Source: an uncultured Chloroflexia bacterium
GTDB taxonomy: Bacteria > Chloroflexota > Limnocylindria > QHBO01
Assembly (NCBI GenBank): GCA_963825525.1
Contig: CAWGTN010000002.1
Span: 1,824,001 to 1,888,000, forward strand
Length of the DNA: 64,000 bases
Direction of reading: 5' to 3'
Under the pieces are notes generated by a model, which did not search any database, had not been told where the DNA came from, and was given only the letters and a program-made list of their open reading frames with translations. Made by a program: the position numbers and the translations under genes. Positions 55,225 through 61,705 of this stretch are shown here, piece after piece. Each line of letters begins with the position of its first letter. Position 1 is the stretch's first letter.

Positions 55225-56244
55225 TCAGCCGCCGATGAAGCTCATCTCGACCTTCGGAAGGTCGACGGTCTCGAGGCTCCGAAGCTCGGAGTAGCGATCG
55301 TCGCGACCGGTCCAGATGCGTCGCAGCGCCTCCGCCAGCTCTCGATCGTCGGCGCCGGATCGAATGATCGCGCGCAGGTCGTGCCCCGAGGTGGCGAAGA
55401 GGCAGGTGAAGAGCTGGCCATCGGCGGAGAGGCGCGCGCGAGTGCAGTCGCCGCAGAAGGGCTCCGTCACGCTGGTGATGACGCCGATCTCCCCGCCGCC
55501 GTCCCGGTAGCGGTAGCGCTGGGCAACCTCGCCGCGGTAGTCGGACGAGACGGGCTCGAGCGGCCACCGGGCGCCGATGGCGGCCACCACCTCGGCGGCC
55601 GGAATGACATCGTCGAGCCGCCAGCCGTTCGATGCACCGACGTCCATGTACTCGATGAATCGCACCGTGGCGTCCGTCCCGCGGAAGTGCTCCGCGAGGT
55701 CCACGATGGCGTGCTGGTTGAGGCCGCGCCGGATGACGGCGTTGACCTTGATCGGGCCGAGGCCCGCCGATTCGGCCGCGGCGATCCCCTCGAGGACCCG
55801 CGACACGGGGAAGCCCACGTCGTTCATGGCCTGGAAGGTGGCGTCGTCGAGGGCGTCGAGGCTGACCGTGACGCGGTCCAGCCCGGCATCGGCCAGGGCT
55901 TGCGCGCGTTTTGCCAGCAGGGACGCGTTGGTCGTCAACGTCAGGTCGTCGATGCCGTCGATCGCCGAGAGCATTCCGACCAGCGTCTCGAGGTTCCGGC
56001 GCACCAGTGGCTCCCCACCGGTCAGCCGCACCTTTCGGACGCCGAGTGCCACCGCGGCGCGCACGACGCGTTCGATCTCCTCGAAGTCCAGGATCTCGGC
56101 CCTCGGCAGGAACGCGTGATCGCGCCCGAACACTTCCTTCGGCATGCAATAGACGCAGCGGAAGTTGCAGCGGTCGGTGACGCTGATCCGCAGATCGCGC
56201 ATCGGGCGGCCGAGGGTGTCGAGGACGGTCAACGGTTCGGGCAT
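55225..56244 (-). CDS. moaA: GTP 3',8-cyclase
   Basis: CNFRCVYC radical SAM motif, FCGDCTRARL...CLF, C-terminal IGG. Confidence 0.95.
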   Translation of the reverse strand: MPEPLTVLDTLGRPMRDLRISVTDRCNFRCVYCMPKEVFGRDHAFLPRAEILDFEEIERVVRAAVALGVRKVRLTGGEPLVRRNLETLVGMLSAIDGIDDLTLTTNASLLAKRAQALADAGLDRVTVSLDALDDATFQAMNDVGFPVSRVLEGIAAAESAGLGPIKVNAVIRRGLNQHAIVDLAEHFRGTDATVRFIEYMDVGASNGWRLDDVIPAAEVVAAIGARWPLEPVSSDYRGEVAQRYRYRDGGGEIGVITSVTEPFCGDCTRARLSADGQLFTCLFATSGHDLRAIIRSGADDRELAEALRRIWTGRDDRYSELRSLETVDLPKVEMSFIGG

Positions 56245-56287
56245 GTGCCGTCCATGGTGGCAGCGCCGGCCGATCCTGCCAATCGCG

Positions 56288-58168
56288 TCATCCCACGAAT
56301 CGCCCGAGGCCGATGGTCGCACCCAGGATGACGGCAACCGCGCCTCCAACGACCAGCGCGATCCGCGACGCGGCCAGCTCGCAGCGCGGCAGGCGCGCGC
56401 CACCCAGGCCGAGGCCCACCCCCACGGCTCCGAACAGCAGCAGCGCGGCCGCGATGACCGTGACGATATCGAGCGGCGGCTGGGCTCGGCCGTCGTCGAT
56501 CCCGGACTCGGACAACGTGAATGCGAAGCGCTGCCGGGCCATCTCCACGCCGGATTGCGCGGACAGGATCCGGACGCTCGTGTCCCAGGAGCTCGATCCG
56601 GGCAGGACGACCGCATCGGCGATCCACTCGATGGTTCCTGTCGTCGAGGCCTGCGTCGCGCCGTGCGTCCCGCCATGTGACCCGCCGGCATCGGCGGTGG
56701 TGAGTGGGACCCGAGTGCTGGAACCGGTGTCGAGTCGATCGAGACCGAGCTCCAGCGATGAAGCGGCAAGCGCATCGGTGGTGCTGACCACGATCCGGTT
56801 GAGCCCCGGGCGTCCGGGAACGAGGCTCATGCTCATGCCGGGCGCGATCGTTCCGAAGGCGTCCGGGATCGGCGCGATCCCGACACCCAGCGGCTCGTCG
56901 ACCGGCGGCGTGCTTGCGAGGGCCGCGGTCATGACCAGCACCGTCGTCGCCAGCATCAGCTCGATCGTGACGCGGTTGCGCAGGCCGTCCAGCCACATCA
57001 TCATGCGGCCGCCGTCGAGGTAGTTCAGTCCGCCGAGCGCCAGGGCACCCCCGGCGAAGCCGCCCTTCATGAGGAGGGTGCGGCCGTATTCGGTGTCGAG
57101 GTCGAGCACCACCCCGGTCTGCACGATTGCGCTGTGGATTCCGGTCAGGACAACGAGGCCGATGGAGACCAGTGCCAGAGCGGAGAAGCGCGGAACGCTG
57201 GTGCGCATGGTCGGGACCGGCCCCTCGCTGAGCATCCGCGGCCAGCGGGCCAGGATCACGAGCCCGACGATTCCGCCGATCCAGACGGCCGCGCCGGAGA
57301 CATGCACCAGCTGGCTCAGGACCGCGGCCGGGCCGGGAATGCCGGACGCATGGCCCGCCAGCACGAGGAGCACCACGCCGGCCAGGCCGGTGGCACCCGC
57401 CGCGAGACCCGCGATGCGTCCGGGCACGACGACGAGGAGCGCGACACCACCGAGCGCGGCGACCGAGGCGCGCGCGAGCTGGAGGACACCGTTGCGACTT
57501 CCGGTCAGGTACTCGGCGACCCCGCCGGCTTCGAGGCCGGACACCGTGGCCGCCACCAGGGTCGCAAGGCCCGAGAGGACCAGCGCCCCTCCGATTCCGC
57601 GGACGAGGACCTGCGGCATGGGCCCGGAGCGGACGACCACGCGATGGAAGACGCTCAGGCCGATGGCCAGGAGCAGACCGATATAGGTCAGCCAGCGACC
57701 GATGACCGCCGACGGCTCCGCAGCCTCGTGGACCACGTCGTCACCGCCGGCGGCACTGACCTCGCCCACGTCGCCGACGCCGAAGCTCAGGAACCCCTCG
57801 GCGGTATGCCCGTCGGCTGCCGACAACGTGCGCCAGGTGAGCGTGTAGATCCCCTCGCCGAGCTCGGGCGCCTCGAGCACCAGCGCGAACGGATCCTCCG
57901 GATCCACGGTTCCGACACGCGAGAGAACGGTCTCACCGTCAGGATCGGCGAGGTCGAACGACGTCACCTGCTCCTCGAGCGGCTCGCTGAAAACGAGCCG
58001 GATCTCTTCGGGCGTCTCGGGCAGGACCGCGCCTGCCCCCGGCGAGCTCGTCACCAGCTGCGCATGGGCAAGGACCCGCGTCCCCGCCGCGCCGGGCAGA
58101 GCCGGCGCGGCGAGAAGGGCGAGTACGGCAACCGCGCCGGCGAGGCGCAGCGCCCGGCACCCGGGCAT
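56288..58168 (-). CDS. CopC-CopD fusion copper uptake protein (YcnJ-like)
   Basis: Signal peptide then HAQL..SSP...DGH; membrane domain with GHA, H....AVWIGG, RFS, YG..L. Confidence 0.85.
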   Translation of the reverse strand: MPGCRALRLAGAVAVLALLAAPALPGAAGTRVLAHAQLVTSSPGAGAVLPETPEEIRLVFSEPLEEQVTSFDLADPDGETVLSRVGTVDPEDPFALVLEAPELGEGIYTLTWRTLSAADGHTAEGFLSFGVGDVGEVSAAGGDDVVHEAAEPSAVIGRWLTYIGLLLAIGLSVFHRVVVRSGPMPQVLVRGIGGALVLSGLATLVAATVSGLEAGGVAEYLTGSRNGVLQLARASVAALGGVALLVVVPGRIAGLAAGATGLAGVVLLVLAGHASGIPGPAAVLSQLVHVSGAAVWIGGIVGLVILARWPRMLSEGPVPTMRTSVPRFSALALVSIGLVVLTGIHSAIVQTGVVLDLDTEYGRTLLMKGGFAGGALALGGLNYLDGGRMMMWLDGLRNRVTIELMLATTVLVMTAALASTPPVDEPLGVGIAPIPDAFGTIAPGMSMSLVPGRPGLNRIVVSTTDALAASSLELGLDRLDTGSSTRVPLTTADAGGSHGGTHGATQASTTGTIEWIADAVVLPGSSSWDTSVRILSAQSGVEMARQRFAFTLSESGIDDGRAQPPLDIVTVIAAALLLFGAVGVGLGLGGARLPRCELAASRIALVVGGAVAVILGATIGLGRFVG

Positions 58169-58755
58169 CAGGCGCGGCGACGCGCCACGGCCAGCCCCAG
58201 GGCCATCAGGCCGGCCAGGAGCCCGGCGCCGCCGACCACGAGCGCCAGCGTTGCCGTCCCCGCCGCAGCGGCTCCGGCCTCGGCGTCCCGAGCCGTATCG
58301 CCAGCCGCAGGCAGGACGACCGGGAACTGGCCGGCGGTCGCGTCCTGCACCTCGCTGAACGTGTCCGGACCGGATGTGAACCTTTCGTCGATCGGCTCAC
58401 CGTCAATCTCGCCGAAGATGTGGAAGGTGTACGCGCCGGCGGCCGTCGGGAAGAAGACCGCCCGGTAGGCACCCGGCTCGCCGAATCGTGGCGAGATCTC
58501 GAGGTCGCGCGACTGGTCGCCGAAGGTGACTTCGGCCTCCAGCGTCTCCTCGAGTCCCTCCACCGGCTCGCCGTCATGCGTGACTCGGAGGTCGAGTCCG
58601 CTCTTCTGGCCGTTGAAGACCGGTTCGTCAAGGAACCCGACGATCATCGTGATGTCGTCGATTTCCCGGCTCTCGTGAGCCAGGGTGGAGCCGATGCTGG
58701 CGACCATCGTCAACATCGCCCCGAGGACGGCTGCGCGTCCAAGGCGTCGAAACAT
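58168..58755 (-). CDS. Exported protein with mature N-terminal His and C-terminal membrane anchor (putative Cu-binding)
   Basis: SD GAGGAG before MFRRLGR; signal peptide ending ..TLA-HE; C-terminal TM plus RRRA. Confidence 0.7.
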   Translation of the reverse strand: MFRRLGRAAVLGAMLTMVASIGSTLAHESREIDDITMIVGFLDEPVFNGQKSGLDLRVTHDGEPVEGLEETLEAEVTFGDQSRDLEISPRFGEPGAYRAVFFPTAAGAYTFHIFGEIDGEPIDERFTSGPDTFSEVQDATAGQFPVVLPAAGDTARDAEAGAAAAGTATLALVVGGAGLLAGLMALGLAVARRRA

Positions 58756-58803
58756 GTTCAGATTCTCCTCGCGGGTCGCCATGCGCGACCCGCCTGCGTT
58801 CGC

Positions 58804-59466
58804 TTACCTGGTCCTGAAGGCGAACGTCATCGGCGGTGCCCGACCCGCCACGTTGTCGGAGATGTCCGGCGCTCGACGGGGAGCGACGGGACGCCCGGGA
58901 CGTGGTACTGCCCGCGGGGCTCGGAGGCGGCTGCGTCGCAGTGCCGCCGCGATGATAGTGATGAGGTCGCGCTCGACCGCGCCGAGGGAAGCGACGACGA
59001 GCGCCGAAAGCGCCGTGAAGGCGGCCAGAACCGGGAGTGCGAGCGGATATTCCGGTCCGATCAGCGCTCCGAGCGCCGGGATGTGGCCGTGGGCAATCGC
59101 GTGTTCGAGGTTCTCCTGCACCACGAACCCGATGGTCACGACGACGAAGAGCCGTGACCAGGTCGCGACGAACCGGATGCGATGCGCCCCGTGGCCGGCA
59201 CGCGGGGCCCCCCGGGCGCGCCGTGCCAGCCGCACGATGTTGAGCATCCAGCGCCCGACCGCGATGGCCCCGACCACGGCGATCAGCGTGCTGGCCGCTG
59301 CCCAATATCCATGGCCGGCGCCGCGCAATGCGTGGGTCAGGGATTCGCCCGGCCCGAGCTGCGCCATGAAGATCGCATCGTGGCTGGCGAGCAGGACGAC
59401 GCCCGCGAGCGCCCAGAAGGCGATGCGCGGCGAGATGCGGGCGGCGATCCGTGTGGTGAATCCCAT
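58804..59466 (-). CDS. His-rich multi-pass membrane protein with C-terminal RAPP motif
   Basis: About 4 TM helices; SHD, GHGYW, QENLEHAIAHGH; ends ...VAGRAPPMTFAFRTR; start uncertain (59466-59496). Confidence 0.7.
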   Translation of the reverse strand: MGFTTRIAARISPRIAFWALAGVVLLASHDAIFMAQLGPGESLTHALRGAGHGYWAAASTLIAVVGAIAVGRWMLNIVRLARRARGAPRAGHGAHRIRFVATWSRLFVVVTIGFVVQENLEHAIAHGHIPALGALIGPEYPLALPVLAAFTALSALVVASLGAVERDLITIIAAALRRSRLRAPRAVPRPGRPVAPRRAPDISDNVAGRAPPMTFAFRTR

Positions 59467-59517
59467 GAATCTCATACGGTAGCCGGAACGCTTCATACGT
59501 CCGGACCGCCGATCAAG

Positions 59518-60942
59518 TCAGGCCGACTCGCCGTGACCGTGGGGATGTTCGACCATCCGCATTCGCAACGCGGGGAGGGGCCGCGGGTCCGGATCGGGCT
59601 CGTACTCGTCGGTCCCCTCCGCCACCGCGTACGTCCACGCCGGCCCGTCGTCGGAAATGGCACGCAGCCCATCGACGAAGGCGTCGATATCCGATCGGTT
59701 CGCGCCCAGGCCCAGGCTCATGCGGGCGGCGCCGGGCAGTCGCTCGTGATGACCGGCTCGCGTCTCGTCGAGCAGCCGGTTCGCCTCCGCGTCACTCACG
59801 CGGAGGAGCCGCATCATGAGCGGGTGGGCACAGAAGCATCCATGACGGATCCCGATCCCGTGCTCGGCCGACAGCACGGCCGCCAGGAGGTCGTATGGGA
59901 CGCCACGCAGGTTGAACGTGGCGAGTCCGACGCGGGGATGATCGGCATCCCAGATCCGATAGTGCTCGAAGCCATCGATCTCGCCGAGGCGGCCGAGCGC
60001 GTAGGCAAGGAGCTCCGCTTCCTCCGCGTGGACGCGATCCATTCCCGCCTGGGCGAGAGTGTCGCAGGCGACGCCCAGTGCAACCGCTCCGATGACGTTC
60101 GGCGAGCCGGCCTCCTGGCGGTCCGGCAGCTCCGCCCAGACGGTCTCATCGGTCGTCACCAGCTTCACCGCTCCTCCGCCCCGGAGGAACGGATCTCCCG
60201 CCGAGAGCCAGTCGCGTTCCCCGATGAGCGCACCGGCGCCGTACGGCGCATAGAGCTTGTGGCCGGACAGGGCCAGGTAATCGATGCCGTCACCGGCCAT
60301 GTCGATCGGCGCGTGTGGGGCGAGCTGGGCCGCATCCACGAGGAGACGAGCTCCGTGCTCATGGGCAACGCCTGCAATCTCGGCGAGCGGCCAGATCTCC
60401 CCCGTGACGTTCGACGCCCCCGTGATCGCGACGAGGTGCGGATCCTCGCAGTGCGGCAGGTCGCGCAGGGTGGCCGCCAGGATCTCGAGCATCTCGGCAG
60501 GCGATTCCGGTACCGGCAGGTAGCGAACGCCCATGCGCTTCCATGGCAGCAGGTTGGCGTGATGCTCGCCGGCGAAGCAGACCACGTGCGTCCCCTCCGG
60601 CAGGATGCCCGCCATGAGGTTGATCGAGTCGGTCGTGTTGCGGGTGATGATCACCGCGTCGTCGTCGCGCGCATTCACGAAGCGATGGATCGACTCGCGC
60701 GCTCCCTCGTAGGCGGCCGTCGACGCGCGTGACTTGAACCCCGCTCCGCGATGGACGCTGGAGTACCAGCCCAACAGCTCCTCGACGGCGTCATGGACGA
60801 CCTGGAGAGCAGGGGCCGATGCCCCGTAGTCCAGGTTGACGTAGCGCCTCGTCCCGCCGGTGACGAGAGGCACCTCGACATCGGCGCCGACCAGGCGCAC
60901 GAGGTCACTTCCGTGGATCGATGGCTCTCGGGTGGCCGTCAT
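59518..60942 (-). CDS. Class V PLP aminotransferase / cysteine desulfurase-like
   Basis: NLDYGAS, SSVHRG, EHHANLLPW, DAAQ, SGHKLYAP, RHGCFCAHP. Confidence 0.85.
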   Translation of the reverse strand: MTATREPSIHGSDLVRLVGADVEVPLVTGGTRRYVNLDYGASAPALQVVHDAVEELLGWYSSVHRGAGFKSRASTAAYEGARESIHRFVNARDDDAVIITRNTTDSINLMAGILPEGTHVVCFAGEHHANLLPWKRMGVRYLPVPESPAEMLEILAATLRDLPHCEDPHLVAITGASNVTGEIWPLAEIAGVAHEHGARLLVDAAQLAPHAPIDMAGDGIDYLALSGHKLYAPYGAGALIGERDWLSAGDPFLRGGGAVKLVTTDETVWAELPDRQEAGSPNVIGAVALGVACDTLAQAGMDRVHAEEAELLAYALGRLGEIDGFEHYRIWDADHPRVGLATFNLRGVPYDLLAAVLSAEHGIGIRHGCFCAHPLMMRLLRVSDAEANRLLDETRAGHHERLPGAARMSLGLGANRSDIDAFVDGLRAISDDGPAWTYAVAEGTDEYEPDPDPRPLPALRMRMVEHPHGHGESA

Positions 60943-60964
60943 CACCTTCATCCTACCCCCGACG

Positions 60965-61705
60965 TCAGGGGAAGAAGGCAAGCTTTGCAGCCGCCAGCAC
61001 CAGGACCAACGCCAGCGCCCGACGCAGGTTCAGGATCGTGAACCTGGTCGATCCGAGTCGAGAGCCGATGAGCCCGCCGCCAACGACCCCGGCGATCCAC
61101 ACCGGAATCTCCGGAGGGAGCGCCACCCCACCGCGCAGCAGCCCGGCGATCCCGGCCACCGAGTTCACCAGGATGAAGGCTCCCGACAGACCGGCCGCGG
61201 CCCGCGTCCCGGTCCAGCCCGTGAGGACGAGAAGCGGGGTCAGGAAGATGCCGCCGCCCGTCCCGCTCAGGCCGGCGAGGAGGCCGATTCCAGCACCGCT
61301 CGCAATGCCCGCCGCCATGGGAACGCCGGATGGCGTGGTGTCGTCGTCAGGGGAGGGCGAGGTTGCCAGCCGCACGGCGCCCGCCAGCAGCACGAGCGCC
61401 ACGAGCGGCCGATACAGCTCGCCGGGCAGGTGAATCATCCCGCCCAGGAATGCCATCGGCACGGACCCCATCGCGAGGGGCACCAGCTGGCGCCACGGGA
61501 GGTGTCCTGCCCGATGAAAGCGGACGATGACGATCGTCGCCACGAACAGGTTGAGGACCAGCGCCGTGGGGCGCATCGTCTCTGGCAGGACGCCGACCAG
61601 CGCCATCGCGGCCAGGTATGCCGATGCGCCGGCGTGGCCGACGCTCGAGTACAGCAGCGCCGCGGCGAAGAAGAGCGCCGCCAGCAGCAGCGCATCGGGG
61701 CTCAT
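60965..61705 (-). CDS. TauE/SafE (TSUP) family transporter
   Basis: YSSVGHAGAS, GLSGTGGGIFLTP; multi-TM. Confidence 0.85.
   Translation of the reverse strand: MSPDALLLAALFFAAALLYSSVGHAGASAYLAAMALVGVLPETMRPTALVLNLFVATIVIVRFHRAGHLPWRQLVPLAMGSVPMAFLGGMIHLPGELYRPLVALVLLAGAVRLATSPSPDDDTTPSGVPMAAGIASGAGIGLLAGLSGTGGGIFLTPLLVLTGWTGTRAAAGLSGAFILVNSVAGIAGLLRGGVALPPEIPVWIAGVVGGGLIGSRLGSTRFTILNLRRALALVLVLAAAKLAFFP

Follow-up and report, generated by a model that had tools for sequence, protein, structure and literature searches.

Two DUF2946 proteins have been described as copper sensors that act through their own nascent chains. In Bordetella pertussis, CruR carries an Arg-Ala-Pro-Pro (RAPP) motif that is needed for the downstream expression of a copper-acquisition operon, and it has been reported that copper, sensed through a CxxC motif, relieves the arrest at RAPP, permits Rho termination and thereby turns the import operon off (Roy et al., mBio 2022, PMC9426467). 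In CutF of Rhodobacter capsulatus copper induces the stalling, which melts a stem-loop over the ribosome-binding site of cutO (Ozturk et al., mBio 2023; bioRxiv 10.1101/2025.02.05.636593). A wider survey has shown that bacterial proteomes are depleted of RAPP and RGPP, that small secreted or membrane proteins carry these motifs preferentially near their C-termini, and that such proteins are enriched upstream of genes for YcnI-family, PCu(A)C, TonB-receptor, PepSY and thioredoxin proteins and also precede copper-resistance genes (Fujiwara et al., EMBO J 2025, PMC12992588). In its supplement, 280 RAPP proteins compared to 91 with AAPP are counted upstream of YcnI-family genes, and the avoidance extends to Chloroflexota, with a median bias of 0.095 for RAPP and 0.03 for RGPP. 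The same study reports that RAPP/RGPP arrest occurs in varied sequence contexts and that seven RAPP/RGPP proteins of Streptomyces lividans arrest both in vitro and in vivo. One of these seven, SLIV_18480, has four transmembrane (TM) segments, three conserved His and a Met as the predicted copper site, and lies upstream of a metal-related gene; its arrest was demonstrated in vitro and in Bacillus subtilis and was abolished by an Arg-to-Ala change. We describe a related locus in a 64,000-nucleotide stretch of DNA (the window) from an uncultured bacterium of the class Limnocylindria, in a soil lineage of the phylum Chloroflexota (assembly GCA_963825525.1, contig CAWGTN010000002.1, positions 1,824,001 to 1,888,000; all coordinates below are those of the window). 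There, on the minus strand, a gene that we call geneA (59496..58804) precedes geneB, which encodes an exported protein, and a gene for a CopC-CopD fusion (copCD). By analogy with the systems above it is quite likely that the C-terminal tail of geneA arrests translation, and on balance it is probable, leaving the polarity of the response aside, that geneA is a RAPP arrest peptide built into a polytopic membrane copper sensor that controls geneB and copCD.

The nearest described relative in kind is SLIV_18480. Both proteins are smaller than 300 residues, have four predicted TM segments, RAPP near the C-terminus and conserved His residues, and are followed on the same strand by a metal gene, but, comparing the two by description only, the Arg of the motif is at position 273 in SLIV_18480, which has conserved Cys40 and Cys127 as well as Met, whereas it is at position 219 in geneA, which has no Cys. 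The geneA locus also differs from those of the published RAPP proteins upstream of YcnI-family genes in belonging to Limnocylindria and in that geneB is not a Pfam YcnI. Motif strings of the geneA family were not found in the part of the published upstream open reading frame (ORF) lists of PMC12992588 that was compared, which does not amount to absence from that study. geneA and CruR are alike in that a C-terminal RAPP, three residues before the end in CruR, heads a copper-acquisition operon. CruR, however, has 145 residues, is exported, bears a signal peptide as well as CxxC, and acts by Rho-dependent termination in a 162-bp spacer, whereas geneA is a four-TM, Cys-free protein followed by a structured spacer of 48 nt, and no DUF2946 match was found for it. 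With CutF, geneA as proposed here would share a nascent-chain copper sensor that acts across the membrane; unlike it, CutF has a copper-induced stall at a PPP-type motif involving EF-P, and its output is a detoxifying multicopper oxidase. The classical arrest peptides ApdA, ApdP, ApcA and SecM have, like geneA, an N-terminal localization signal and a motif near the C-terminus and lie upstream of the gene that they regulate, but they monitor SecDF, YidC or SecA, are short, having just one signal or TM segment, and carry no metal-ligand motifs. Because CruR, CutF and the RAPP/RGPP membrane proteins of PMC12992588 have been described, the concept of a RAPP membrane copper switch is already in print, and geneA represents an unannotated family within a recently described class. 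A previous reading of the window from its sequence alone (the sequence-only reading) had presented a His-based sensor, set against the CxxC-using CruR, as something new; this was overstated, since the four-TM, His-based RAPP protein SLIV_18480 was published in 2025.

The arrest assignment is supported by the conservation of the motif. In geneA, RAPP is encoded by CGG GCA CCG CCG (residues 219-222, 58842..58831), follows an R/P-rich linker of variable sequence (residues ~177-218, 58843..58968) and is separated from the TAA stop codon (58806..58804) by eight codons for a variable tail, MTFAFRTR (58830..58804 including the stop). When homologues were collected by a word-indexed search (204 matches, the best 120 examined for the tail motif) and by an exhaustive search (350 matches at E <= 0.001, the best 150 listed, from which 149 further representatives were examined), R[AG]PP was present 1-20 residues before the C-terminus in 244 of the 269 homologues among the matches listed. 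In the word-indexed set the motif lay within the last 25 residues in all 120 listed, as RAPP in 108 and RGPP in 12, with 4-9 residues after it; in the exhaustive set it was found in 124 of the 149 further representatives listed, with 1-20 residues after it. The 25 homologues that lack R[AG]PP are mostly shorter than 180 residues or match the query only in part. One of the exceptions (P0248) has RPPP instead of RAPP, a variant that would escape any motif search confined to RAPP/RGPP. In an alignment of 105 diverse members that are 26-74% identical to the query (A1), the only invariant columns are H39, H62, E131, R219, P221 and P222, while A220, E128, N129, W65, G48, G141, L90 and L178 are conserved at 90% or above, and the tail that flanks RAPP is otherwise without consensus. 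In the closer set (A2), H132, H136 and H138 are also invariant and the mean column identity over the TM domain is 58%. The Arg of RAPP lies 67-75 residues after the EYP motif (E149-Y-P151, 59044..59052), which marks the entry of TM4, in 157 of the 158 homologues that have both motifs, and 69-70 residues after it in 115 of them. Thus geneA has what is seen in RAPP/RGPP arrest peptides, namely a conserved C-terminal motif with variable residues after it, a length below 300 residues with TM segments as the localization signal, and a gene on the same strand a short distance after its stop codon. The motif at such a position is also rare in a membrane protein of this genome: a six-frame scan of the window's genome gave 57 ORFs of 60-320 residues with R[AG]PP no more than 15 residues from the stop, only two of which have a hydrophobic 19-mer, geneA and a 142-residue ORF on another contig (C3; L098 3765-4193, minus strand). 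The latter has an N-terminal hydrophobic segment and GGRAPP 11 residues before its stop, and about 120 nt after it there is a cytoplasmic-looking ORF of 145 residues on the same strand; this could be a further arrest peptide, or else a spurious ORF.

Outside the tail, the conserved residues of geneA are those of a candidate metal site. The called ORF encodes 230 residues without Cys from the start at 59496, with alternative in-frame starts at 59475 and 59466; the length of about 220 residues given in the sequence-only reading corresponds to the third in-frame ATG (59466, M11) and is short of the called ORF by ten residues, while its other statements on the protein, namely four TM helices, no Cys, the motifs SHD, GHGYW and ENLEHAIAHGH, and RAPP eight residues before the stop after an R/P-rich linker, all agree with what we found. 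The AlphaFold2 model, built with 105 homologues, has a mean predicted local distance difference test score (pLDDT) of 84.4 and a predicted template-modelling score of 0.73, with helices at residues 23-47, 65-93, 105-136 and 153-191 that account for the four TM segments; pLDDT is low from about residue 192, and residues 192-230 are modelled as an unstructured tail. S38-H39-D40 (59377..59385), with the invariant H39, lies in TM1, G61-H62-G-Y-W65 (59302..59316), with the invariant H62, at the outer end of TM2, and E128-N-L-E131-H-A-I-A-H-G-H138 (59083..59115), with the invariant E131, at the outer end of TM3. The positive-inside rule is an established basis for inferring membrane topology. The Arg-rich parts of geneA are the TM2-TM3 loop and the C-terminal tail, and Lys is absent and Arg scarce in the loops that bear the His/Glu motifs; therefore, from this rule applied by eye to the sequence, both termini are predicted to be cytoplasmic and the conserved polar residues would all face outward. 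The candidate His/Glu ligands may also cluster in space. geneA has no Pfam family at E <= 0.1 and no NCBIfam family. Neither a DUF2946 match at that threshold nor a Cys is found in it, and among the 105 geneA members DUF2946 is not one of the best 25 of the 28 Pfam families that they matched. A Foldseek search of the model against the PDB gave nothing at E <= 0.001, and a fold search of the Atlas gave unnamed clusters only, a few members of which carry Actinomycetota or Vulcanimicrobiota labels that can serve as a lead only.

The family is widespread in the class. A profile survey found a match in at least 115 of 401 genomes of Limnocylindria, a number that is a lower bound, the first look having been stricter, and that includes six genomes flagged as unpublished. 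Matches were found in 56 of 177 high-quality genomes, in 32 of 65 genera, and in 33 of 51 genomes of the window's genus besides the window's own. When the phylum was sampled evenly, matches came from 12 of 401 genomes, and all were from the same class with the exception of one weak match.

The genes that follow geneA point to copper. For this comparison the DNA of 96 loci was retrieved, 15 from genomes of the phylum, one from a contig of a Limnocylindria metagenome-assembled genome and 80 from metagenome contigs found with A2, and the 3' end of geneA was complete in 85 of them. Wherever the DNA extends far enough, the gene after geneA has the same orientation, and the gap from the geneA stop measures 36-205 nt in the 75 related loci with a called geneB start. 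This gene is of one of three kinds: a protein of the geneB type, of 195-243 residues, with a signal peptide followed by AH[EGVQ] and with a C-terminal anchor; a SCO1/SenC protein (L077-L079, Pfam E-values of 1e-36 to 7e-42; L076 and L080 are SCO1-like candidates by eye, without a family scan); or a CopC protein (L095; judged by eye, also L005-L008 and L013). The third gene encodes CopC or CopC-CopD in 35 of 40 scanned ORFs, PCu(A)C in three, after SCO1, and a protein without a family in two that are probably mis-called frames. The genes downstream of geneA thus encode exported copper proteins in every locus examined and are never sec or yidC. The homologue comparison that the sequence-only reading had proposed therefore came out in its favour, the His residues, the terminal RAPP/RGPP and the position before copper genes all being conserved. 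One genome (G124) has four geneA paralogues (L006, L013, L014 and L015), each before a different exported protein, which by eye are two CopC-like proteins, one thioredoxin/SCO1-like lipoprotein and one 507-residue protein of unknown type, and two other genomes of the class have three geneA matches each.

In the window, geneB (58755..58168, minus strand) encodes an exported protein of 195 residues with a signal peptide, a beta-sandwich and a C-terminal TM anchor. Its ATG at 58755 (MFRRLGR...) is 48 nt beyond the geneA stop with a Shine-Dalgarno (SD) sequence 9 nt upstream, and an ATG at 58782, which falls in a hairpin loop, was rejected as the start by comparison with all homologues. No Pfam family was found for geneB, only weak YtkA and Filamin matches in 6 and 9 of 30 members, respectively. 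His27, the predicted first residue of the mature protein, is invariant. The model of geneB has a pLDDT of 80, and above 90 in the core, and its best structural match is CrdA of Helicobacter pylori (Z 12.2, root mean square deviation 2.0 A over 99 of 108 residues), followed by DUF4426 (Z 11.2), CopC (Z 9.2) and P19/FtrA/HftA (Z 9.0). From the model, geneB is predicted to be an exported N-terminal-His protein of CrdA/CopC-like fold. An assignment to YcnI (DUF1775) was considered but had no support from Pfam, as none of the 30 geneB homologues gave a match to it at E <= 1. Among the structural matches listed, the best are CrdA, DUF4426, CopC and P19, and YcnI does not occur. The stop codon of geneB and the start of copCD overlap as ATGA. 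The third gene (58168..56288, minus strand, 626 residues) matches PF04234 (9.9e-19, 68.6 bits) and PF05425 (1.1e-09, 39.1 bits), both above the cut-offs, as well as the NCBIfam models for CopC and CopD, and therefore has both domains in one polypeptide as in a YcnJ-like copper transporter. A longer ORF listed from 56775 that overlaps copCD is an over-extension.

The RNA between the arrest site and geneB is folded in a manner that is largely retained among the related loci. In the window the mRNA has, in order, the RAPP codons, a hairpin across the stop codon (H1, 58795..58829), a second hairpin (H2, 58771..58793), the SD sequence GAGGAG (58765..58770), 9 nt and AUG; (A)CGAGGAG at the SD is conserved in alignment A4. 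The core of H1 pairs CGUUCGC (58826-58820) with GCGAACG (58803-58797), and H2 has 9 bp formed by GCGGGUCGC (58793-58785) and GCGACCCGC (58779-58771) with the loop GCAUG, lies directly 5' of the SD, and has a pair probability of 0.98. Both the 9-bp hairpin abutting the SD and the stem across the stop codon had been proposed in the sequence-only reading and were recovered by our folding. The 60-nt segment with the two hairpins is more stable than its dinucleotide shuffles (z = -3.5), and for the segment from RAPP to the SD in 71 unique loci the mean z against such shuffles was -2.2, with 36 loci below -2 and 56 below -1. A stem of at least 4 bp across the stop codon was found in 60 of 71 related loci, with differing sequences, and a hairpin of at least 5 bp wholly after the stop in 70 of 71. 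Stems kept with differing arms, read by eye, include GUUCG/CGAAC, GGAUGCU/AGCAUCC, GAUGCUUC/GAAGCAUC and GCGUGCUCA/UGAGCACGC. The hairpins were scored for each sequence and not from a consensus. A semi-conserved R-x-F-[AV] after RAPP coincides with the 5' arm of H1 (GUUCG with CGAAC), in the window at 58807-58830 and in related loci, and these tail residues may be constrained at the RNA rather than at the protein level.

Where the sequence-only reading did not hold was in the details of this RNA. It had noted an exact complementarity between GCGGGUCG (58848-58841) and CGACCCGC (58778-58771), which is indeed present, and had read from it a switch in which CGACCCGC leaves H2 to pair with GCGGGTCG at the arrest codons. 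The ensemble probability of that pairing in the window is 0.017, and the alternative fold, when forced by constraint, has -41.5 kcal/mol compared to -44.1 kcal/mol for the minimum free energy fold, a difference of 2.6 that makes it possible but marginal; by eye, the closest two loci for which there is DNA (L016 and L002) also lack the complementarity of GCGGGUCG to the H2 arm. That reading was thus largely right in kind and not in its RNA detail. What the related loci suggest in its place is that the arrest codons themselves could mask the SD. Of the Pro codons at the arrest site, 56 of 164 are CCU, compared to 74 of 908 for the other Pro codons of geneA, an odds ratio of 5.8 (a first count gave 46 of 142 compared to 94 of 1449), and the 21 nt counted from the Ala codon contain an anti-SD tetramer, CUCC or CCUC, in 64 of 82 loci compared to 23% of 7620 control windows. 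When the duplex energy between the RAPP window and the SD region was ranked among all windows of geneA, 25% of 71 loci had it in the best tenth and 56% in the best quarter. A pairing of the SD with the footprint of the stalled ribosome, closing a junction that holds H1 and H2, is predicted (P > 0.5) for 22 of 72 loci.

A mechanism that would fit these observations is as follows. By analogy with ApdA/ApdP and CruR, from which the P- and A-site assignment is taken, the ribosome would arrest at Pro221/Pro222. At that point TM4 would be about 45-70 residues back, just out of the exit tunnel, and would have to insert and pack against TM1-3. The candidate ligands H39, H62, E128, E131, H132, H136, H138 and E149 would all be on the extracytoplasmic side, and copper bound at this outer His/Glu site would close the helix bundle, so that the pull on the nascent chain frees the arrest. 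Without copper the ribosome would remain stalled, covering the arrest codons and the 5' arm of H1 and keeping the ribosome-binding site of geneB available; it may also keep Rho off the RNA. As a stall that persists in low copper would keep the geneB site open or Rho off, or both, the products of the copper-uptake genes would appear under copper scarcity. Four parts of this account are inferred by us, namely that copper binds, that force releases the arrest, which polarity holds and, for the window locus, how geneB is coupled, and relief of the arrest by copper is clearly favoured over its induction by copper. Since a Rho gene is present in the window's genome, the window locus may have a CruR-like anti-termination component. 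A more specific form of this mechanism, which we put forward tentatively and hold to be rather less probable than not, is that the arrest codons double as the anti-SD strand that closes a three-way junction (anti-SD, H1, H2 and SD), the whole being read out by a Cys-free His/Glu site that pulls at a distance of about 70 residues. If the Ala-Pro-Pro codons are the anti-SD mask, the arrested ribosome would sit on the mask of the next gene's site, and the result would be a compact, fully cis-encoded transmembrane transducer from metal to translation that is mechanistically distinct from the Rho-based switch of CruR.

Several observations weigh against this account, most of them on its RNA side. 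The pairing of the SD with the footprint is predicted in no more than the 22 of 72 loci given above, and in 12 of 72, the window included, the SD pairs with the 30 nt further upstream. The arrest codons of the window, GCA CCG CCG, have no anti-SD, as is the case in 18 of 82 loci, the window among them; its RAPP segment ranks at the 87th percentile when pairing to the SD region is scored, and the partner predicted for its SD, if there is one, is UCUCC, which precedes the Arg codon by 16-20 nt. Modelling a stalled ribosome shifts the accessibility of the window SD only from 0.32 to 0.40 in a 150-nt context and from 0.68 to 0.72 in a 111-nt context, and the wider 111-nt stretch of the window folds at a z of -1.15 only. 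RNAalifold on a MAFFT alignment of 42 spacers gave no consensus pairs, which we attribute to the misalignment of hairpins of variable length. The related loci are not independent of each other, so that the codon and motif statistics overstate the significance. By sequence geneA is not the first gene of its transcript unit, as an aminotransferase gene adjoins it upstream. Finally, since the TM domain is strongly conserved, the finished geneA protein may have a role of its own.

Of the other ways in which the locus could be read, the opposite polarity, in which copper bound on the outside would bring about or lengthen the stall and thereby turn on geneB and copCD for copper defence, has a direct precedent, as copper-induced stalling of Rhodobacter CutF melts the stem-loop over the cutO site (bioRxiv 10.1101/2025.02.05.636593). 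It would also suit the Pfam name of CopD, 'copper resistance protein D', and the title of CrdA, the best fold match of geneB, as a copper resistance determinant. SCO1 with PCu(A)C, and CopC, are copper-delivery systems that are needed at low copper, and in Bacillus YcnJ, a CopC-CopD fusion, is induced together with YcnI by copper limitation. The sets of genes found downstream of geneA therefore speak for copper delivery rather than defence, and folding induced by a metal would be expected to add pull and so to release the arrest rather than to strengthen it; for these reasons we consider copper induction unlikely. It is less probable still that the RAPP stall is real and copper is not sensed, the stall being a fixed pause for the insertion of TM4 or a monitor of Sec/YidC insertion as in ApdA or MifM. 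The fixed spacing from TM4 to RAPP is what a force sensor of membrane insertion would need, and all classical RAPP peptides monitor the localization machinery, but the downstream genes are never sec or yidC and encode copper proteins in every locus examined, and outside the tail it is His and Glu residues that are invariant, which by the topology argument would be on the outer face.

The high conservation of the TM domain, together with a window mRNA that has no clear stall-dependent switch, could also be taken to mean that the C-terminal GRAPP is a signal at the protein level, for docking or processing, and that geneA is simply a membrane subunit for copper uptake without regulatory stalling. 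We regard this as very improbable, as RAPP/RGPP are strongly avoided in bacterial proteomes including those of Chloroflexota and arrest in varied contexts (PMC12992588), the residues after the motif vary both in sequence and in number (1-20), and the fivefold enrichment of CCU and the anti-SD are signals at the RNA level that a docking site would not need. The reading that we prefer thus remains that of a RAPP arrest peptide in a membrane copper sensor, with arrest relieved by copper.

The surroundings of these genes in the window can be described briefly. Four genes on the minus strand form an operon-like row, a class-V aminotransferase (60981..59518, PF00266), geneA, geneB and the CopC-CopD fusion, followed by MoaA. 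The gap between the end of the aminotransferase gene and the start of geneA is 19 nt; of 15 related loci tested, 11 have a class-V aminotransferase gene as the immediate same-strand neighbour upstream, and the enzyme of the window ends in a His-rich tail, ...VEHPHGHGESA. The MoaA gene (radical SAM and Mob_synth_C, 55225-56250, minus strand) is on the same strand as copCD and follows it after a short gap. A scan of positions 56000-60200 gave no promoter-like sites, and a terminator scan of the same region gave one terminator-like site, which is within geneB and at chance level.

Copper homeostasis is usually described as transcriptional, and copper sensing by nascent chains, as in CruR, CutF and the RAPP proteins of Streptomyces, has been known for only 3-4 years. 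For the steps of sensing and coupling the geneA family offers a large natural data set, with hundreds of diverse sequences that are present in about a third of the sampled Limnocylindria genomes. It has a clean set of candidate ligands, in which two His and one Glu are invariant and Cys is absent, and features that are directly testable, which are the fixed spacing of about 70 residues, the overlap of a rare codon and anti-SD with the arrest codons, and the hairpin at the stop codon with the second hairpin after it. If the analogy with the known arrest peptides holds, RAPP-type switches would extend to Chloroflexota, where they would stand before geneB, a copper protein that family models miss.

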